Under the pieces are notes generated by a model. That model did no database searches, was not told where the DNA came from, and worked only from the letters and a program-made list of their open reading frames with translations. From positions 22,139-86,138 of the forward strand of contig JANORB010000038.1 in the NCBI GenBank assembly GCA_031415135.1: a DNA stretch of 64,000 nucleotides, given 5' to 3'. The DNA comes from Methylibium sp. (GTDB taxonomy: Bacteria > Pseudomonadota > Gammaproteobacteria > Burkholderiales > Burkholderiaceae_C). The translations under genes and the position numbers were made by a program. Below, one piece after another: positions 19,420 through 59,726 of the stretch. Positions within the stretch are counted from its first letter, which is position 1. Every line of letters starts with the position of its first letter.

Positions 19420-22400
19420 ATGGGTGACGCCAGGGCAGCGCAACCTGCGGAAGATGCCAGACAGAAGGTCGAGAGACTCTTCCAGTTTATTCGTGCGTTC
19501 ACGAACTTTCGGCATCCGCTGCGGCGTCAATTGTCGGACCAGCCCGCCGCAAAGCTGCAGATTGCCTTCGATGCCTTACCCGCGACGAGCGAATGGATCG
19601 AGTCGTGGAGCGGGCCGGAAGATGACCGACGGTGGCTGCTCCGGGTCCGCCTCTGCCCGCCCGACCCATGCCCTCTTCCGCCGCAGCAAATCAAGGACTG
19701 GCTGTTCCCAGGTTGGGAGAAGCACATCGAGACCGCGCGGCACGCGGAGGAAAAGACATTCCGTGGGGCAGACGGCCAAACGGTGATCGAGAGGTTTTCC
19801 GATTCGACCACGCGGCCGGCGGTTTGGCTCGATTGGTCGGCGCAGCGCGAGACTTGGTCCCGGGTGCAGAAGAGGCATGACCCGGTGCGGATGCTGTTCG
19901 CGAATCTGCAGGCCATTCGGGCCGAGCTGCAAAAGCAGTCCGAGCAGGTCGAGTTGGTGCTCGGTGTCGGTCATCTGCGTCACCATTCAGATGGGCAGCA
20001 GTACGATCATCCGCTGGTGCTCAAGCCGATGGGAATTGAGTTTGATGGCCAAACGAACTGCTTCACGTTGACTGAAACTGATCGCGCTACCGAGATATAC
20101 GCGGAGCCCTTGGCAGAGTTGATGGTGGATCTGACTCCTTCGGGGAGTTGGCGAGAATCCTTGCAGGGACTGCATCCGCTGGACTCGCAAGCGGGTGTCA
20201 TCGTCAAGTCCATGGGTGATTGGCTTCGAAGTCAACCAGGGTTCGCAACCGCTCAACTTCCCCTTGCTCCGGTCATTTTCCTGCGTGACAGGGGCGGCTG
20301 GCCTGCGCGCGCAGCCAGCGCGGTACTCGAAGACCTTGCCACTCGCCCAATCGACGATCTGCCGCCATACCTGTTGCGGCTGGTCGGTCTTGCGCCAGCG
20401 GAAACCGATGACGACTCTCAGCTACATGCCGTTGATTTCGTCGCGAACGAATCACCGGACATTTTGTTCGCTCTACCGGCGAACCTCGAACAACTCCAGC
20501 TTGCGATGCAGATCGAACGCAAGGACGTGGTGTTGGTACAAGGGCCACCCGGTACTGGCAAGACCCACACCATTGCGAACCTCCTCGGCCATCTGCTATC
20601 GCAGGGCAAACGCGTGCTTGTCACCAGCCACTCTTCAAAGTCACTTCGCGTGCTACGGGACAAAGTGCCAGAAAACATTCAGTCGCTTTGCGTGAGTGTG
20701 CTGGACGACGCTTCGCGCAGTCGCCGTGAATTGGAGCAGGCAGTCCAATCCATCGCGAAGCGGATGCAGGAAGGCAACTCGAGTCTCTCGCACACAGTTG
20801 ATCGACTGGAGCGCGAACGCGCGGTGCTGCTCGAGAGCATCCAGCGCGCCCGTGCAGATCAGCGACTCTGCGTGCGACGCGAATACGACCCGATCGTGAT
20901 CGCAGGGTCATCGATCGAACCATCCCGCGCTGCGCGTGAGGTCCGTGATGGCGCACGTGACCACGCTTGGATCCCGGGTCCACTGCGGGAGGGTGAACTG
21001 GGCAAGGCTTGTCCCATCTCACCGGGAGATGTTCAGTCCTTGTATTTGAGTCAAGGTCGCATTTCGGCAGCTGACGAAACTCAGTTGGACGCAGGGCTGC
21101 CGACTCCCGGATGGCTGCCCAGCCCGATGGCGTGGCGACAACTGATGGATCAACTCGGCGCGCTTGACGCCGAAGCCCAGCAGATCGAGAGCCCCATTTG
21201 GCTGGGGGTCAATACACCTGTCGAAAAGTTGACATCGCATCTGTCCGTCGCGTCTGCGGCGCAGGACACGTTGAAGCGAATCACAAAACCAGGGCCATGG
21301 TTGATGGCACTGGTCGAGGCTGGAGCAGACGCCGACTGCCTTCCACATGAATGGCAAGAATTGCGGGACTTCGCTGCCCGAGTACAGACCTTCTACTCCA
21401 ACGCACAAGGCGCGTTGTTGGAACATGGCCCAGAGGTGCCGGAGCCGCTTTGCATTGAGGACACGGTTCAACACTTGCGCGATATCAGTGCCCACGTCGC
21501 GCAGGGCCGTGGATTGAAGGTCTACCAGTGGCCCATGAAGGCGCTTGCGCGAGGGCATTGGAAGAAATTGCTCGGTCATGTGCGGTGCAACGGTGAAGTT
21601 CCTTGGCAAGAGAAGCAATTCGACGCGTTGATACGGCACGTCGAGCTTCATCGCGCACGCGCTCGTCTCCGACGACGCTGGAAGCGCCAAGTGCAGGCGC
21701 TGGGCGGACCTCCTCTGCCCGACGCGTGTCCGGAAAAGACCGCCATCGATTGGCTGCCCTATGTCTTGGCGTCGCTTGGATGGTTCAGCCGCTATTGGCG
21801 TCCCGTGACTGAGGCGGCCGGGGCATACGGAAAGACTTGGGCAGAAATTGAATCGCGTTCGCCGCCTCAAGCGGGACAACATCCGCGGATCGCGAGGGCA
21901 CGCATCCTGTTGGACCAGCATCTGGTGCCGGAATGGAAGGCTCAGCTCGCTCGACGTGGAGCTGAAACAATTCGCGTCGAAATCGCGCAGTGGCGCGTTC
22001 GCCTGAATCGTGAAGTGCCGCAAGCCGCGTCACTCGGTGTCGTGGCCGGTATCGATCAGTCGATGTCGACTGTGGATTCCGCAGCGTATTCATCTGCGTT
22101 CGCCGAACTCGAAAGGTTGCGGTTGCTGGAACCAGAGCATCAGCGCCGTGATGCTTCGCTCAAGCAGCTAGCGCGGGGAGCGAGTGAATGGCATCGAATG
22201 CTGACGGACCGAGCCCCTGGGCACGATGCTCCTCTTTCACCTGGGCTTGATCTGGCGGCCGCATGGCGTTGGCGGCAATTGAGTGACGAACTGGTGCAGC
22301 GCTCGACGCTGGATGCCGAGCATGTTGCTGAAAGGCTGCGGCAGTTGACCGCTGCGCTGCAGCGGACGACGGGGGATCTGATTGCCGCGAGATGCTGGGC

Positions 22401-50900: not shown

Positions 50901-51800
50901 TCAAGCGGCGCACAGGTGCGCCAGCAGCGCCGAAGCCGTTTCAGCGGGCAACTCCTCAGGCAGGAAGTGGCCACCGGCCAGCACCGCCGCGCTGACCTTG
51001 CGCGCGCATTGCGCCTGCCACAGTTCGACCGGCTTGAACAGGCGTTGCACCACGCCGCGCGCGGCCCACAGCACCAGCGTGTCGCAGGCAATTCTGTGCC
51101 CAGCGGCACGCGAGGCGCGGTCGTGTTCAAGGTCGATGCCGGCCGCGGCCCGGTAGTCTTCACACGCCGCGTGAATCGCCTCGGGCCGGCAGAAGCAGCG
51201 TTCGTATTCCGCCAGCGCCTGCGGCTCGATGTGGTTCAACCCGGCCGCGCCCCAGCCGCCGAGCGTCCAGTGCAGGTAGAAACGAGGGTCGCCGCCGATC
51301 ATGCGTTCGGGCAGCGGCGTGGGCTGGATCAGGTGGAACCAGTGGTAGTAGGCGCTGGCGAAGCGCATGTCGGTCGCCTCGTACATGTCCAGCGTCGGGG
51401 CGATGTCGATCACGCACAGCCGGCTCACCCGTTCAGCATGGTCGAGGGCGAGCCGATGCGCCACGCGGCCGCCGCGGTCGTGCCCCACCACGGCAAAGCG
51501 CGGGTGGCCGAGTTGGCTCATCAACCCGGCCATGTCGTGCGCCAGCGCGCGCTTGCTGTAGTTGGCGTGGTCGGGGTCGCCGGGCGGTTTGGATGAATCC
51601 CCGTAGCCGCGCAGGTCGGGCAGCACCAGCCGGAAGTGCTCGGCCAGCGGCAGCGCCACCCGGTGCCACATCGCGTGCGTCTGCGGGAAGCCATGCAGCA
51701 ACAGCAACGGCGGGCCGTCGGGGCGGCCACCGGTGCGCGCGAAAATCTCGACGCCGTTGACATTGAAACGGTGCTGCTCGAATCCATTGAACCATGTCAT
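50901..51800 (-). CDS. alpha/beta hydrolase (haloacetate dehalogenase/epoxide hydrolase-like)
   Basis: LLLLHGFPQTHAMW, LRGYGDS, and the nucleophile elbow VVGHDRGGRVAH (Asp nucleophile type). Confidence 0.85.
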   Translation of the reverse strand: MTWFNGFEQHRFNVNGVEIFARTGGRPDGPPLLLLHGFPQTHAMWHRVALPLAEHFRLVLPDLRGYGDSSKPPGDPDHANYSKRALAHDMAGLMSQLGHPRFAVVGHDRGGRVAHRLALDHAERVSRLCVIDIAPTLDMYEATDMRFASAYYHWFHLIQPTPLPERMIGGDPRFYLHWTLGGWGAAGLNHIEPQALAEYERCFCRPEAIHAACEDYRAAAGIDLEHDRASRAAGHRIACDTLVLWAARGVVQRLFKPVELWQAQCARKVSAAVLAGGHFLPEELPAETASALLAHLCAA

Positions 51801-51914: not shown

Positions 51915-54900
51915 TTGAGCAGCAAGACCGGAAGCGACCTGTTCATCGTCGACAACAGCGATGAAGAGTGGAAGGTTCTCAGCTACCTCTCCGAGTGGAC
52001 TGAAATCTCGTCCAAGTTCGATATCGCCACGGGCTACTTCGAAATTGGCTCGCTGCTGGCGCTCGATGGTAAGTGGCAGCGCCTCGATCAGATTCGCATC
52101 CTGATGGGCGACGAGGTCACGAAGCGAACCCACCGGGCATTGCTGGAGGGCATCGCCCTCATCGCGAACATGCTTGACGACAGCATCGAGCAGGAAAAGA
52201 CCAAGAACGATTTCCTTTCCGGCGTACCGGCCATCGTTCAGGCCTTGGTCGATGGTCGAATCGTTTGTCGTGTCTACGCCAAGAAGAAGTTTCACGCCAA
52301 GGCCTACATCACGCATTCAAAGCTCGCGGTTGTCGGCTCTTCGGCGCTGGTCGGCTCAAGCAATTTCACGGCCAAGGGCTTGACCGCCAACGTCGAATTG
52401 AACGTCCAGCTGCGGCGCGAAGTCGAAGAGTTGCAGCGCTGGTTCGATCTTCACTGGGGCGAAGCCGATGACGTGACAAGCGATGTCCTGAAAGTCATCG
52501 AGCGGCACACGCACCTGTACTTGCCGTTCGAGGTCTACGCCAAGGCCTTGCAGGCCTACTTCCGCAACCACGAAGTCACGGTCGGGGAGTGGGAGCGCAA
52601 CCACTCTGCGATGTATCCGCTGCTCGACCAATATCAACGCGACGGGTACGGCTCCCTGCTCAAGATCGCCGGCAAATACGGCGGCGCGTTCCTGTGCGAC
52701 GGTGTCGGTCTGGGCAAGACGTTCGTCGGGCTCATGCTGATCGAACGCCTTGTTGTGCATGAGCGTAAGAAGGTCGTGCTGGTTGTGCCGAAGTCGGGCC
52801 GAGAGCCCGTGTGGGAAACCAACCTTCGCAAGCTACTGCCGCAGTTGTTCGGTGACTTCTCCAACCTGGTCGTCATCAATCACACCGATCTGCAACGCGG
52901 TGGCGAATGGCAAGAGCGTATCGCTCGCCTCAAAGCCCAGGCCGATGTTGTGGTGGTCGATGAAGCGCATCACTTCCGCAATCCAGCCAACACCAAGGAG
53001 CGTTCACGCTACTGGCGCCTTTTCGATCTCTGCGAGGACAAGCAGGTGTTCATGCTGACCGCCACGCCGATCAACAACCGGTTGATCGATTTGCAGCACC
53101 TGATGGAACACTTCTCACGGCGGCAGCCCGACTTTTTCAAGGACACCTTGGGCATTCACTCGCTGCCTGGCCACTTCCGAAAGCTTGAGAAGGACCTGGA
53201 GAAGCGCGTCGGCGCCGATGGCATGCAAGCCGAGTTGCCAGGCTTGGAAGCTGCCGATCTCTTGGCGCACGACAACCTGTTCAGCGAACTCGTGGTGCAA
53301 CGCAGTCGCGCCTATGTGCGCCGCAGCCAGGAGCAACTCGGTGGCAAGCTGGCGATCTTTCCCGATCGCGCGCCGCCCAAGGTGGCCAACTACTCGATCA
53401 AGAAGACCTACGGCAACCTGCTGACCAAGCTCGAAAAGGCCTTCAACCGCCGCAACCCGCTGTTTGCGTTGCCGATGTACTACCCCTTGGCCTACGCCAA
53501 GGGGCCTGTGCAAGATGGCTTGGAAGAGAACCGCCAGAAGCAGGTGGTCGGCCTGATTCGCATCCTCTTTCTGAAGCGGTTCGAAAGCTCTGCGCGTGCC
53601 TTTGAATCGTCATGCCAACAACTGCTCTTGAAGGTCATGGCCTTCGTGTCGGTGAACAGCACCACCAAGCACGAGCAATCGGCGTTCGAGCGTTGGAGGG
53701 TGCGCCATGAAGAGTTGCTCGGTCATGTCGACACCCGCCAAAAGGCGCTCTTCGGTGAGTTTGACGAAGAGGCCGACGAAGACATCATCCCCGAGGAAAT
53801 GCTGGAGGCGGCCGACAAGCTCGACCGCGAGCAATTCGACATCGCGCAAATGCTGTCGGAGTCGCTGCAAGACCTGGATCAGCTCGCCGAATTTCTCAAC
53901 GAGCTGCGCCAGTTCAAGCCGCAGCACGACGACAAGCTCAAGGCGCTGATCGAACTGCTGAAGACCGACCCCGTCCTCAAGAAGCACAAGGTGCTGATCT
54001 TCAGCGAGTTCCAGACCACCGCCCGCTACCTGGCCGAGGAACTCGACAAGGCCGGCATCAAGGGCCTCGACCAAATCGACAGCGCGACCAAGCGCGACCG
54101 TGGCGACGTGATCCGCCAGTTCGCGCCGTATTACAACGGCCTGTCGAGCAAGGAACTCGCTGACCGCGACCAGCCGGAAACACGCGTGTTGATCGCCACC
54201 GACGTGCTCTCCGAAGGCCTCAACCTGCAAGACGCCACCCGCCTCATCAACTATGACCTGCACTGGAACCCGGTGCGCTTGATGCAACGCATTGGCCGTG
54301 TCGATCGCCGCCTGAACCCGGCCATCGAGAAGCAGATGCTCAAGGATCACCCCGCCGTCAAACCCATTCGTGGTTCTGTCGAGTACTGGAACTTCCTGCC
54401 GCCCGATGAGCTGGACGAACTGCTCAAGCTCTACAAGAAGGTCAGCAACAAGACGCTGTTAATCTCCAAAACGCTGGGCATCGAGGGCAAGAAACTGCTG
54501 CGGCCCGACGACGACTTCGCGGCTCTCAAGGACTTCGATCACGCCTATGCGGGCGAGCCCACTGCGCTGGAGACCATGCACCTGGAGTACCAACGCCTGC
54601 TTGTTGCACACCCCGACCTGCCACAGCGGCTCGAAGCATTGCCCGGCCGCGTGTTCAGCGGCAAGGCGCATCCGCGGCTTGGCACCCAGGCCGTGTTCTT
54701 TTGCGTCGGCCTGCCGGCGCGTGACGCCTCGATCACCGAGCCAGCGACCGAAGCCGAAGGTTGGACGCTGGAGGCCGGCAGCACCGCTTGGTTGATGGCC
54801 GACGTGGCCAGTGGCCAGATCGTCGATGACACCGCCACCATCGATGCCGCAATCCATTGCGAACCGCAGACGCCGCGCCATTGCGAGATCGCACAAGCGA

Positions 54901-55016
54901 CCTTGGGCGAGCTGCGCGCGAAGATTGAGAAGCATTTGAAGAACAGCTACTTCAAGCAGGTGCAGGCGCCGGTCGGCGTGGTGCCGCAACTCATCGCGTG
55001 GATGGAGCTGAACTGA
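51915..55016 (+). CDS. PLD(HKD)-nuclease domain fused to SNF2-family helicase
   Basis: AGGAGG sits 5 nt before TTG 51915 (alternative start 51870). HKD motif KKKFHAKAYI...VGSSNFT. SNF2 motifs DGVGLGKT, VVVDEAHHFRN, MLTATPINN, LIFSEF, LIATDVLSEGLNLQ and QRIGRVDR. Confidence 0.88.
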   Translation: MSSKTGSDLFIVDNSDEEWKVLSYLSEWTEISSKFDIATGYFEIGSLLALDGKWQRLDQIRILMGDEVTKRTHRALLEGIALIANMLDDSIEQEKTKNDFLSGVPAIVQALVDGRIVCRVYAKKKFHAKAYITHSKLAVVGSSALVGSSNFTAKGLTANVELNVQLRREVEELQRWFDLHWGEADDVTSDVLKVIERHTHLYLPFEVYAKALQAYFRNHEVTVGEWERNHSAMYPLLDQYQRDGYGSLLKIAGKYGGAFLCDGVGLGKTFVGLMLIERLVVHERKKVVLVVPKSGREPVWETNLRKLLPQLFGDFSNLVVINHTDLQRGGEWQERIARLKAQADVVVVDEAHHFRNPANTKERSRYWRLFDLCEDKQVFMLTATPINNRLIDLQHLMEHFSRRQPDFFKDTLGIHSLPGHFRKLEKDLEKRVGADGMQAELPGLEAADLLAHDNLFSELVVQRSRAYVRRSQEQLGGKLAIFPDRAPPKVANYSIKKTYGNLLTKLEKAFNRRNPLFALPMYYPLAYAKGPVQDGLEENRQKQVVGLIRILFLKRFESSARAFESSCQQLLLKVMAFVSVNSTTKHEQSAFERWRVRHEELLGHVDTRQKALFGEFDEEADEDIIPEEMLEAADKLDREQFDIAQMLSESLQDLDQLAEFLNELRQFKPQHDDKLKALIELLKTDPVLKKHKVLIFSEFQTTARYLAEELDKAGIKGLDQIDSATKRDRGDVIRQFAPYYNGLSSKELADRDQPETRVLIATDVLSEGLNLQDATRLINYDLHWNPVRLMQRIGRVDRRLNPAIEKQMLKDHPAVKPIRGSVEYWNFLPPDELDELLKLYKKVSNKTLLISKTLGIEGKKLLRPDDDFAALKDFDHAYAGEPTALETMHLEYQRLLVAHPDLPQRLEALPGRVFSGKAHPRLGTQAVFFCVGLPARDASITEPATEAEGWTLEAGSTAWLMADVASGQIVDDTATIDAAIHCEPQTPRHCEIAQATLGELRAKIEKHLKNSYFKQVQAPVGVVPQLIAWMELN

Positions 55017-55026
55017 ACTGAACTGA
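55008..55026. repeat. pentanucleotide repeat (CTGAA x3 + CTGA) containing the helicase stop codon
   Basis: gagCTGAACTGAACTGAACTGAcg. TGA is reached in every frame. Confidence 0.85.
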
Positions 55027-55069: not shown

Positions 55070-58000
55070 ATGGCCACCCGTGCTCCAGCGCACGACCCGC
55101 AGGTCGAGAAGCTGCGCCTCATCGCCAACACCGCCCAACTCGTGCAGTACCTGCATGCGGAGCTGGACTGGCCGGTCGAGGTGGAAGATGTGGACGACGC
55201 CTTCTTCGACTGGGACCCGGCCGAACTTCATTTGTCCGAAGACTACGTCGGCGTCATCAGCAGCATCAAGCAACTGCGCCCGCTCGCCGATGGGCAACCG
55301 TGGGGCATCTTCTTCGTCGAGTTCGACCGCAAGCGCCTGCCCATCGTCGCGTTGCGCCGCCTGCTCAACAGCTTGGCCATCAAGCGCCGCGCCAGCGCGA
55401 AGAGGGGAGGGGGCTACCAAACCTGGCATGCACGCGACCTGCTCTTCGTCTCCAGCTTCGGCGAGGCGGGCCACCGCGAGATTGCGCTGGCCCACTTCAC
55501 CGATGAGTCCGAGCATGGCGATCTACCCGTGCTGCGCGTCCTGGGTTGGCACGAAGACAATAAAGAGTTGCAACTTGCTGCCGTTGTCGCCACGCTTCGC
55601 AGCAAGCTGCGCTGGCCGGCGCTGACAGAAGGCGCCGCCGCACAGAAAACCTGGCGCGAGCAATGGGCCGGCGCCTTCACGCTGCAATACCGCCAGGCCA
55701 TCAACGACGCCAGGTCGCTGGCGCTGGCGCTGGCGGTGCTCGCCAAGCGCATCCGCGTGCGCGCCAACGATGTGCTCAAGGCCGAAAGCGAGCGCGGCCA
55801 CCTGCGCAAGTTGCATCAGGCCTTCAGGGCCAACCTGATCGCCGACCTCACGCCCGATGGGTTTGCCGACATGTTTGCGCAGACCATCGCCTACGGCCTG
55901 TTCACCGCCCAGGTGTCACGCGGCTCCGGCGCGCTGGTGGCCGACAACGTCGTCGACATGGTGCCCAGCACCAACCCCCTTTTTGCGCGATCTGTTGAAT
56001 GACTTTCTCAGCGCTGCGGGCCGGGCACGCCAGCGCGACAAGCGGGTGGACTTTGACGAGCTCGGCATCAATGACGTGGTCGAGACGCTGCGCGACGCGC
56101 CGATGGACGACATCCTGCGCAGCTTCAACAGCGACCGGCCGGGCGAAGACCCGGTGATCCATTTCTACGAAGACTTCCTGAAGGCCTACGACAAGAAGAT
56201 GCGCGCCCAGCGCGGCGTGTTCTACACCCCGCGCCCTGTGGTGCAGTTCATCGTGCGCAGCGTGCACGAGATTCTGCAAACCGAGTTCGGCATCGAAGAC
56301 GGCTTGGCCAGCACCATCACCTGGGGCGAGATGCGAAAGCGCCGGCCGGACCTTGCGTTGCCGGCGCACACCACCGACGACACGCCCTTCGTTCAGGTGC
56401 TCGACCCTGCCACCGGCACCGGCACGTTTCTGGTCGAGATCATCGACTTGATCTACGAGCACATGCGTGCCAAGTGGGCGAAGCGGGGGTGGGTGACGCG
56501 CGAGCAGATCAAGGCGCCGTGGAATGACTATGTGCGACATCACTTGTTGCCGCGACTGCATGGCTTCGAGTTGATGATGGCGCCGTACGCCATCGCGCAC
56601 ATGAAGATCGGCTTGAAGCTGGCGGAGACCGGCTATGCGTTTCCCGAAGATGGGCCGCGTGTAAACGTATTCTTGACCAACGCGCTGGAGCCCGCACACG
56701 CCATAAATCCGGGGTTGCAGTTTGAGGCTCCCATGCTGGCGCATGAGGCGGCTGAGGCAAATCGAGCAAAGGTCCGACTGGCGGCAACCGTGGTGGTCGG
56801 CAATCCGCCATATTCGGGCGACTCGGCGAACCAAGGCGATTGGATTGCTAAATTGATGCGCACGCGGTTGCCTGACGGGGCGGACAGCTATTTCAGATTT
56901 AACGAAGCCGATCTTGGCGAGCGGAACCCCAAGTGGGTGAACAACGACTACGTCAAGTTCATGCGTTTGGCGCAGTCAAGGCTGGCCGCACTGGGTACCG
57001 GCGTGCTGGGCTACATCACCAGCAACTCATACCTGGCAAGCCCGACGTTCCGCGGCGTGCGCCAGAGCTTGCTGCACACCTATCCCCAACTGCGCCTCCT
57101 GGATTTGCACGGCAACGCGAACAAGGGGGAAATTGCGGGCGGTGACGAGAACGTGTTTGAAATAAGGGAGGGAGTCGCCATCGCTATCGGCAGCCTCAAT
57201 TCAGTCATCGCGCGTCACGTTGGGCACGCCGATCTGACTGGGCCTCGGCAAGCAAAGTACAACAGCTTGTTGGCTGATGGACTCAGCCTGTTACGTCCCT
57301 TTGTGCCTATGGGCGACAAGCTTCAACTGACACGCAGCGATGTCGTCGGGCTGGCGGAGTACGAGGCAGGGTGGCCGCTACCCACCATTTCACCGGTGAA
57401 CTCGGTGGGCATCGTTACAGCACGGGATGCTCTATGCATTCACTTCACCGAGCAGCAGGCTTGGAACACCGTGCGCGACTTCGCAAGTCGCAGTGTTGAA
57501 GATGCGCGGGAGGCATATTCGCTTGGCGACGATGCGCAAGACTGGCGAATTGAGTGGGCTCAAAAGGATGTGAATGCGACCGGGCCAAGTAGGAAGTTGG
57601 TGCGGTCAATTCTCTATCGCCCTTTTGATGTGCGCCAGACGTACTACACGGGCAAGGCAAGTGGTTTCATGGTCCGGCCGCGGCCGGAGGTCATGCGCCA
57701 CATGCACGGAGGCGAGAACCATGCTCTTTCCTTGGTCCGCAGCACGGAAATCGTCGGTGGGTATGAACATGTGTTTGTCGCAAACCTGCTCACGACTCAT
57801 CACACGGTTTCGATCAAGGAAGTCAACTACCACTTTCCGCTTTGGCAGTATGAGGGGGAAGTTCGCACCCCAAACTTTTCGCCAAGCTTTTCCAAGGCCA
57901 TGCGATCTGCCCTTGCCTTCGCCGCGACCGACTACCGCCCTGAAGACGACACTGCCCCTCTGAACGCAGACAAGGTCTTTCACTATCTCTACGCTGTGCT

Positions 58001-58682
58001 GCACAGCCCGGCCTACCGGCAACGCTATGCCGCTTTCTTGCGCACCGACTTCCCGCGCATCCCGATTCCGGCCTCGCGCTCCGTGTTCGACGCACTGGCC
58101 ACATTGGGCGCGCAGCTCGTGAAGTGGCACTTGCTGGAACACCCGACTGCCATTTCGATCACCGCCACCTCCGCCCCAGCGGGCGTGACCGTGCCGGCCT
58201 TCACCGACACAGACCGCAAGCTGCTGAAAGTGGCCGAGAAGAGCCGTGGGCTGGCCAACATCGAGATGACCGCCGAAGGCCCGTTCGGCACCGTTTTCAT
58301 CAACCCCACCAGCGGCTTCACCAGCGTGCAGCAAGCCGTATGGCAACACACGATCGGCGGCTACCAAGTGCTGCACAAGTGGCTTGACGATCGTCGCAAA
58401 GCCCAGCGCAGCCTGAGCGACGACGACATCGCGCACTGGCGGCGCGTGTACGCCGCACTCGAAGCCACGCAGGGCCTGATGCGACAAATCGACAAAGCCA
58501 TCACGGCGCATGGCGGCTGGCCGACGAGCGATGGCAAGGCTGGCGCGTTTTCCTTCGATCACCCTCCTCCTGATGTCGTCACGCTCGCCGCCAACGCCGC
58601 TGCCCGACCCAAGGCACGACGCAAAGCGGTACCCGTGACCCAAACCGGGTTCGGCTTCGATGGTGGCCCCGACGGAGCCTGA
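55070..58682 (+). pseudogene. Type ISP/IIG-like N6-adenine DNA methyltransferase with C-terminal specificity domain, split by a 1-nt frameshift
   Basis: ORF 55070..56002 and ORF 55857..58682 join as ...MVPSTNP|FLRDLLNDF... if one C of the C5 run (55975-55979) is removed. Motif I VLDPATGTGTFLVE, motif IV VVGNPPYSG, and a Type ISP C-terminal-like block FHYLYAVLHSPAYRQRYAAFLRTDFPRIPIP...GGYQVLHKWLDDRR. Confidence 0.85.
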
Positions 58683-59574
58683 TCCGCCCACCGCCGACGC
58701 GCCGGGCCCGGCTCAAGTTGACTACTTCGTCGACGAAGCGGGCGACACGGCGCTGTTCCGCCACGGCGGCAAGCCGGCGCTGGGCCGAGACGGTGTGTCG
58801 AACTTCTTCATCCTCGGCCGGCTGGAGATCGACGACGCGGCAGCGCTGGCATCGGATATCGCGGCCCTGCGCCAGCGCCTGCTGGCCGACCCACTGCTGA
58901 GGGCGGTGCCGTCGATGCAGCCTGATCGTGGCAAGACGGCGCGCTTCTTTCATGCCAAGGACGACGTGCCCGAGGTGCGGGTGGAGGTCTTCCGGCTGCT
59001 GCTCGCCCACGAGTTGCGCTTCTCGGCCATCGTGAAGGACAAGCGTGTGCTGTTGCGCGAGGCGCAGGCGGCGCTGGCTGCGGACCCGCGTGCGAAGTAC
59101 AAGCCCGACGGGCATGCGCTTTACGACGCGATGATGCGCAAGCTCTTTGCGCGGCTCGGCCGCCACGGTGTGCATTCGCGCATCACGTTCGCGGTGCGCG
59201 GCAGCAAGCCCCGCACCGCGGCGCTGAAGCATGCGGTGCTGGAAGTGGAGCAGCACTTCGAGCGCGATTTCGGTTTTGCCCGCAACGTGAGCATCGACGT
59301 CGCCAGTGGCTACCCCTGGGACGCCGCCGGGCTGCAGGCCTGCGACTATTTTCTGTGGGCGCTGCAGCGCTTCTACGAGCGCCGCGAGGAGCGATTTCTC
59401 GAGGCCATGCGGCCGAAGTTCGTCGAGGTGATCGACATCGACCTCGACGCACCCAAGCGACGCGGCAAACAGCGCGAGCGTAGCGTGACCTTCACAAAAG
59501 AAAACCCGCTAGGTCTGGCGACGCGAGCGGGTTTGGCAGCGGCTTCAAAATTAGGGCTGGGCGATATAGGATGA
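58660..59574 (+). CDS. DUF3800-family protein
   Basis: ATG at 58660 overlaps the methyltransferase end by 23 nt. N-terminal YFVDEAGD and C-terminal LQACDYFLWALQR match the DUF3800 pattern as I recall it. Confidence 0.7.
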   Translation: MVAPTEPDPPTADAPGPAQVDYFVDEAGDTALFRHGGKPALGRDGVSNFFILGRLEIDDAAALASDIAALRQRLLADPLLRAVPSMQPDRGKTARFFHAKDDVPEVRVEVFRLLLAHELRFSAIVKDKRVLLREAQAALAADPRAKYKPDGHALYDAMMRKLFARLGRHGVHSRITFAVRGSKPRTAALKHAVLEVEQHFERDFGFARNVSIDVASGYPWDAAGLQACDYFLWALQRFYERREERFLEAMRPKFVEVIDIDLDAPKRRGKQRERSVTFTKENPLGLATRAGLAAASKLGLGDIG

Positions 59575-59677
59575 GCGAGTCACCTCACGGCATGGAGCCG
59601 ATTTTCGTCTCCCAGCGACTTGTATTGTAGTCACCGAGCGCGCTCTGCGCTCACTTCGAGCCGATATACTGATCGTC

Positions 59678-59726
59678 AGCGCTGATTTGTTCCGGCTTGC
59701 GGGCGCTCAATAAATTCCGCTAAAGA
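59678..59726 (+). ncRNA. candidate SAM-II-type riboswitch aptamer in the metX leader
   Basis: AGCGC-UGAUUUGUUCCGGCUUGCGG-GCGCU hairpin. The loop segments CUU and GCGG can pair with the downstream CCGC-UA-AAG, giving an H-type pseudoknot with a U-rich strand. Confidence 0.45.

Follow-up and report, generated by a model that had tools for sequence, protein, structure and literature searches.

A probable loss-of-function frameshift in the methyltransferase and target-recognition gene of a PLD-SNF2 module in Methylibium, found beside an intact allele

Why does a long methyltransferase gene in a Methylibium sp. genome run into a stop codon after 310 codons, with about 900 further codons of the same gene continuing in the next reading frame? 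The gene lies in a stretch of 64,000 nucleotides (nt; positions 22,139 to 86,138 of contig JANORB010000038.1, assembly GCA_031415135.1), the whole of which we call the window, and stands between an upstream gene for a nuclease-motor fusion (PLD-SNF2) and a downstream DUF3800 gene. The genome is a 280-contig short-read metagenome assembly of 4.97 Mb and 67% GC, and the break could in principle be an assembly error, a reversible switch, a site of ribosomal slippage, the boundary between two working fragments or a knock-out. We give a probability of about 0.7 to the last of these, in the form of a recent and genuine loss-of-function allele that arose by a 1-nt insertion in a short homopolymer and coexists with an intact allele.

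The break falls at AAC5T5G, 55975-55984 of the window, where the frame reads GTG CCC AGC ACC AAC CCC CTT TTT GCG CGA TCT GTT GAA TGA (Table 1). Deleting one C yields a single open reading frame (ORF) of 1203 amino acids (aa) with zero internal stops, which reads STNPFLRDLLNDF / DMVPSTNPFLRDLLNDF across the site. The two pieces, ORF A and ORF B, lie in frames that differ by +1; ORF B measures 941 aa as an open frame in the ORF listing (55857..58682) and 895 aa as the annotated product P0004, which starts at TTG 55995. A Shine-Dalgarno sequence rated good (GGGAGA) lies 8 nt upstream of the ORF A ATG at 55070, and none was found before either ORF B start, 55857 (ATG) or 55995 (TTG). The initial annotation, which described one gene split by a 1-nt frameshift, was right in its coordinates, in both translations and in the continuation of about 900 aa when set against the window sequence and the ORF listing; its central claim is also borne out, as removal of the C restores the gene and the restored protein is identical to a natural one, P0124, described below.

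Homologues show what the unbroken gene looks like. Searching the joined sequence against 5.8 billion proteins returned thousands of relatives, and the best 119, which we examined, are 818-1421 aa long and nearly all cover 97-100% of the query. In the alignment, residues T301, N302, P303, F304 and L305 are invariant in 119 of the 119 homologues that cover the site, the sole gap at this TNPFL motif being the window's own truncated product. Since all covering homologues read continuously through TNPFL, the extra base breaks the frame inside an invariant motif. We also compared 80 genomic loci with a methylase homologue, drawn from many phyla: the homologue occupies a single frame in 79 of them, and all 43 loci with the exact motif have one continuous ORF across it. 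A natural division into two genes at this point, which the initial annotation had named as an outcome that would count against it, is therefore rejected, as 119 of 119 proteins are continuous and 79 of 80 loci are single-frame.

These comparisons also bear on the idea that the break is harmless, with re-initiation at TTG 55995 supplying an 895-aa piece that joins the 310-aa fragment in an active enzyme. Termination-reinitiation would be geometrically possible, as this TTG sits 5 nt before the ORF A stop, and gene callers annotate both pieces. However, no orthologue is divided here, the break lies within the invariant motif and at the start of a predicted helix, neither 55995 nor 55857 is preceded by a Shine-Dalgarno sequence, and residues 304-308 would be lost while the seven out-of-frame residues LFARSVE would be added to the first fragment. 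We regard a functional split as barely credible.

Strong evidence for a real mutation comes from the presence of both alleles in assemblies from one study. The 90% protein cluster of the window's products includes the 1203-aa protein P0124, which is the window gene minus one C, letter for letter. It is encoded on Logan contigs of runs SRR20217190 (8034 nt) and SRR20217180 (5929 nt), where the tract is AACCCCTTTTTG (C4T5); loci L013 and L014 show 99.97% identity to the window, with C4T5 and an intact 1203-aa ORF. The 310-aa product is found in SRR20217179 and SRR20217186, whose Logan contigs (2080 and 1190 nt, respectively) match the window at 100% identity, C5T5 included. All four runs belong to the same study, and contig numbers within runs reach 986,574, which identifies them as complex metagenomes. 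The sampled community thus very probably contains both the C4 and the C5 allele. Where the intact haplotype overlaps the window, over 8 kb, the two differ at two positions only, the indel and a synonymous C/A difference at 57188, and the other six homopolymers of at least 5 nt are identical, as are the runs of at least 4 nt (52). The tract, with 0-2 bases added, had no exact-pattern match in metagenome contigs of the Joint Genome Institute (JGI), and a full-text literature search on the four run accessions returned no paper.

If the extra C were an error of sequencing or assembly, the organism would truly have C4 and an intact gene. The draft status of this 280-contig metagenome-derived genome, the fact that homopolymers are the commonest site of indel errors and the existence of an intact C4 version in the same study all speak for such an error. 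However, separate assemblies of two runs give C5 and those of two further runs give C4, the indel follows run identity rather than falling at random, every other homopolymer in the 8-kb overlap agrees, and runs of 5 nt are rarely miscalled in short-read data. We consider an error very improbable and, because C5 was reproduced in separate assemblies of two runs, judge it highly likely that C5 is a genuine allele. The initial annotation had held that a C4 tract, giving a single intact ORF, would undo its reading; the intact C4 ORF does exist, but it stands beside a C5 that is itself reproduced in two run assemblies.

The haplotypes themselves carry information on how the alleles arose. A further contig of SRR20217186 (window 56304-59705) has A at 57188, so that three haplotypes are observed, C4-A, C5-A and the window's C5-C, the two sites of C5-A lying on separate contigs of SRR20217186; the fourth combination, C4-C, was not seen among the assembled contigs. 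These three are compatible with a single insertion followed by the single-nucleotide polymorphism (SNP), without recurrent switching. The allele appears to be recent, since the gene bears no other damage and a single synonymous SNP separates the haplotypes over 8 kb.

The tract itself was compared with its counterparts elsewhere. The nearest orthologues share 72% protein identity, the identical chromosomal site (between alpha/beta hydrolase and metX-metW genes) and the same three genes, and their tract is AAC CCG TTT TTG or AAC CCC TTT CTG (AACCCGTTTTTG or AACCCCTTTCTG); the family as a whole shows free synonymous variation in the Pro, Phe and Leu codons of the site. As the nearest orthologues are without the tract and the site codons vary across the family, C4T5 appears to be a lineage-specific accident of synonymous codon choice and not a conserved slippery element. 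Within the window it is the sole adjacent pair of homopolymers of at least 5 nt, but there are 28 such pairs in the 4.97-Mb genome, isolated runs in the window number 15 for C5 and 13 for T5, and the tract is statistically unremarkable. No homopolymer longer than 5 nt was found within the methylase gene.

Two further broken copies were encountered among the other loci of the 80-locus set. In a Pyrinomonadaceae metagenome-assembled genome (MAG; OY970389.1), the methylase homologue, which carries the target recognition domain (TRD), shifts frame exactly at a C14 homopolymer (locus L055, 8840-8853), where the tblastn alignment switches between frames 1 and 2 around query residue 932; this C14 reflects either genuine phase variation in the family or a homopolymer error in long reads. 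In a Vicinamibacterales MAG (OY762226.1; locus L076, 2608-5322), it is the PLD-SNF2 gene that is split, by an insertion of about 2.7 kb that resembles the insertion sequence IS21 and encodes an IstA transposase and an IstB ATPase on the opposite strand. As a methylase gene is broken at one locus and a PLD-SNF2 gene at the other, decay reaches both genes of the module.

A reversible origin must also be weighed, in which the C4/C5 run acts as a contingency tract with a low switching rate and turns the whole system ON and OFF across the population. In favour of this, the runs of one study contain the two tract lengths on near-identical backgrounds, the indel sits in a homopolymer, phase variation of Type I and Type III systems usually targets the methylase/specificity gene, and the distant relative with C14 shifts frame in the same gene. 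However, C4/C5 is far below the 7-8 nt or so at which homopolymers turn hypermutable, the longest homopolymer in the gene is 5 nt, the nearest orthologues have no such tract and synonymous positions in the family are free to vary. Moreover, the three of four indel/SNP combinations seen fit one mutational event, and a G/C run of at least 9 nt occurs in the methylase gene at only one of the 80 loci, that with C14, all others having runs of at most 7 nt. We consider such a contingency tract unlikely, and find no evidence in these sequences for an evolved switch or a selected contingency tract. The initial annotation's caution that C5 is short for classical phase variation was well placed, while slippage-based switching as an evolved feature, which it had listed as an alternative, is not supported by orthologues without the tract and haplotypes that fit a single mutational origin.

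Slippage of the ribosome rather than the polymerase could in theory rescue the broken allele. A +1 shift would yield some full-length enzyme and a leaky, low-level system if peptidyl-tRNA-Pro on CCC moved one base along the CCC-C quadruplet, onto the overlapping CCC, while decoding of the rare CUU codon in the A site was pending, and a shift past the fifth C, from AAC CCC to TTT TTG, would give the exact wild-type TNPFL. CTT makes up 1.8% of Leu codons in the genome and would be a slow A-site codon after the slippery CCC-C, a quadruplet described as a tRNA-Pro +1 frameshifting motif in Escherichia coli reporters (PMC4519876). Against this, no orthologue needs or conserves a frameshift site, the upstream sequence GGTGCCCAGCACCAAC holds no GGAGG-like Shine-Dalgarno stimulator, and the general rate of non-programmed +1 frameshifting is far lower, under 0.003% per codon, so that slippage at an internal site of this sort should stay below the 1% figure. 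We think it quite unlikely that the broken allele makes full-length enzyme in this way, although CCC-C may be a source of leakiness. A programmed +1 frameshift of the prfB kind is rejected: the site is not conserved, there is no upstream stimulator and, because no orthologue needs the shift, it is excluded as an evolved feature. A combined scheme, in which a slow C4/C5 ON/OFF switch is paired with an OFF state made leaky by tRNA-Pro +1 slippage, with methylation kept up for a safe reversion to ON, seems to us decidedly improbable.

We therefore return to the knock-out. Ordinary replication slippage in the C4 run would be its most likely origin, giving a single-base C4 to C5 insertion that shifts the frame of the methyltransferase/target-recognition gene and is probably a knock-out and not an evolved switch. 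Translation from the normal start would stop 8 codons past the shift, so that the 310-aa N-terminal product would lack the catalytic and specificity domains, and the remaining 900 codons or so have no ribosome-binding site of their own. The early stop, 2.6 kb ahead of the translationally coupled DUF3800 gene, may also lower the expression of that gene. Because the PLD-SNF2 protein itself lacks a DNA-reading domain, and because Type I, Type III and Type ISP enzymes need the methylase/specificity part to find their targets, loss of the methylase would probably silence methylation and restriction together, which would explain how a lineage can lose the methylase, keep its nuclease gene intact and stay viable. 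The C5 (OFF) lineage, with its PLD-SNF2 gene intact, is abundant enough for its DNA to assemble from at least two runs, so the nuclease evidently does not kill cells that lack the methylase, which fits target recognition residing in the methylase subunit. The initial annotation had raised this location for target recognition and had argued that its loss would then be a safe way to switch off a potentially autotoxic system; the Type_ISP_C domain makes the former plausible, and the logic of the latter is reasonable.

Several points weigh against this interpretation. Support for C5 comes from two runs, not three, as the deposited genome may derive from one of the C5 runs, and Logan contigs give each run's majority path only. 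A reversible switch, too, would yield C4 and C5 within one study. Finally, the loss of restriction alongside methylation is argued by analogy with other restriction-modification types.

Table 1. Coordinates of genes and sequence features at the split methyltransferase locus (window positions).
Feature	Position	Strand	Remarks
Gene 1, PLD (HKD) nuclease fused to SNF2-type ATPase motor	51915..55016	+	1033 aa, intact; alternative GTG start 51870
ORF A, start of methyltransferase gene	55070..56002	+	310 aa: 303 native codons, 7 out-of-frame (LFARSVE), premature TGA 56000-56002
C5 run with extra C	55975..55979	+	C4 in intact allele, AAC CCC TTT TTG = N P F L; L013/L014 C4T5, L015/L016 C5T5
T5 run	55980..55984	+	Equal length in both alleles; TTT TTG in intact frame
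ORF B, remaining ~900 codons of methyltransferase gene	55977..58682	+	Homology from ~55977; frame open from 55857
Synonymous SNP	57188	+	ATC in window; ATA in L013, L014, L098
Gene 3, DUF3800 protein	58660..59574	+	304 aa; start overlaps methylase ORF end by 23 nt; Pfam DUF3800, PADLOC DUF3800_VII

Domain searches indicate what the OFF lineage would lack. ORF B matches the Pfam families N6_Mtase, Eco57I and Type_ISP_C (E 4.5e-74) and contains the motifs GVFYTP, DPATGTGTF and NPPY of gamma-class N6-adenine methyltransferases (MTases), and a Pfam search of ORF A gave zero matches. Both halves match the same PADLOC model, PDLC03610, with ORF A residues 203-306 aligned to model positions 150-249 and ORF B running to 1074, and the joined protein scores 618.7 bits. 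In the PDB, LlaGI (E 6.7e-24) and LlaBIII (E 3e-19) are homologues of the MTase-TRD part. ORF A and ORF B are thus the two halves of one protein of about 1203 aa that combines an N6-adenine methyltransferase with a specificity part of the Type ISP kind.

An AlphaFold2 (AF2) model of residues 1-360 (pLDDT, the predicted local distance difference test, 73) places an alpha/beta domain at 1-180 and a helical domain at 189-355, which precedes the catalytic domain and whose helix 303-315 opens with the TNPFL motif. Compared with the PDB, this model found no significant fold match (best E 0.085; LlaGI E 0.11). The N-terminal alpha/beta domain (window 55070-55670, residues 1-200) has neither a Pfam match nor a significant PDB fold match. 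Five homologues without the N-terminal 235 residues or so (L085, L088, L089, L095 and L096) are also without an upstream PLD-SNF2 gene, which suggests that this domain couples the methylase to the PLD-SNF2 protein, and it may dock the nuclease-motor.

The genes on either side of the methylase gene, PLD-SNF2 and DUF3800, are undamaged, and each has the same sequence in the two haplotypes. The PLD-SNF2 protein matches the Pfam families PLDc_2, SNF2-rel_dom, ResIII and Helicase_C and the PADLOC model C3a139 'HKD+Snf2' (E 2.8e-58). In most of the 80 loci a PLD-SNF2 gene immediately precedes the methylase gene, and a DUF3800 neighbour is found in only eight. A threefold CTGAA repeat at 55008-55026 (gaactgaactgaactga) bears the PLD-SNF2 stop codon and is identical in the Logan contigs of both alleles.

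Together the three genes form an islet from about 51.9 to 59.6 kb, with a GC content of about 60% against about 69% in its flanks, which are housekeeping genes (an alpha/beta hydrolase on one side, metX-metW on the other). The islet was not found in genomes of the same genus, the same hydrolase/metX site also holds the 72%-identical orthologous islets, and we predict that the islet was horizontally acquired. Five of five Logan contigs that reach its right side end at 59705/59706, and the longest begins at 51671, the positions of the islet borders. The assembly graphs seem to branch at 51671 and 59705, and the contig ends at these borders suggest that co-occurring strains have a different islet, or none, at this site. 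Elsewhere in the deposited genome, poly-G/C runs of at least 10 nt occur only within 170 nt of contig ends (contigs C1, C142, C260 and C265, with G15, C52, C23, G14 and G10/C10); they are artefacts of two-colour Illumina sequencing that were not removed before deposition, and they mark the assembly as one of short-read data.

The locus adds one more case to a familiar class of event, as defence genes are often lost to small indels. Its interest lies in the module concerned, since PLD-SNF2 paired with a Type-ISP-like methylase occurs at more than 596 genomic loci in many phyla, and the window would hold a natural knock-out of the target-reading subunit of this very widespread, restriction-like two-gene module. 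A single sample series contains near-isogenic ON and OFF populations side by side, and the recognition motif would emerge from comparing their methylomes. That the OFF lineage lives with its nuclease gene intact would amount to field evidence that the nuclease needs the methylase in order to act.

A literature search for a two-gene PLD-SNF2 plus methylase system found no experimental characterisation, and the named defence systems nearest to it differ. DISARM class 1 is rejected, as the three-gene islet has neither DrmA nor DrmB (DUF1998) and its DrmD match is partial, at 134.8 bits against a cut-off of 610; DrmMI had no PADLOC match among the islet proteins. MANTIS/Gao_RL and BREX-related systems, which came up in the literature search, have different gene sets and were not taken as relatives of the same type.

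Closest in its parts is Type ISP, represented by LlaGI and LlaBIII (PDB 5FFJ and 4XQK), with which the module shares a homologous gamma-class N6-adenine MTase, a C-terminal specificity domain and an SF2-type motor and nuclease as part of the system. In Type ISP, however, these form one polypeptide with an Mrr-like nuclease, whereas here the PLD/HKD nuclease and SNF2 motor are encoded by a separate upstream gene and the methylase bears an N-terminal domain of about 200 aa without a fold match. The candidate leakiness has a counterpart in tRNA-Pro slippage at CCC-C (PMC4519876): the mutation in the broken allele created the same quadruplet before a rare codon, and a +1 shift there would restore the wild type, although the published case concerns errors in E. 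coli reporters and ours is predicted from sequence. The phasevarions of Haemophilus, Neisseria, Helicobacter and Campylobacter (Type III mod, Type I hsdS/hsdM) likewise place a frameshift in a repeat within a methylase or specificity gene, but their repeats are long and conserved (homopolymers of about 8 nt or more, or many tetra- or pentanucleotide units) and ours is an unconserved C4/C5. In phasevarions, turning off the target-reading subunit is safe, as restriction depends on that subunit.

Frameshift knock-outs of methylase and specificity genes are common in restriction-modification systems, and it is these inactivated genes (mod, hsdM and hsdS pseudogenes) that the locus resembles in the event itself: a 1-nt indel in a short homopolymer is followed by a stop a few codons on, close relatives keep the intact allele, and the methylase/specificity gene is broken while the nuclease gene is intact. 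It differs from the classical cases in that the affected system is a two-gene PLD-SNF2 and MTase-TRD module and not a classical Type I, II or III system, and from isolate-based pseudogenes in that both of its alleles come from metagenome assemblies of one study.

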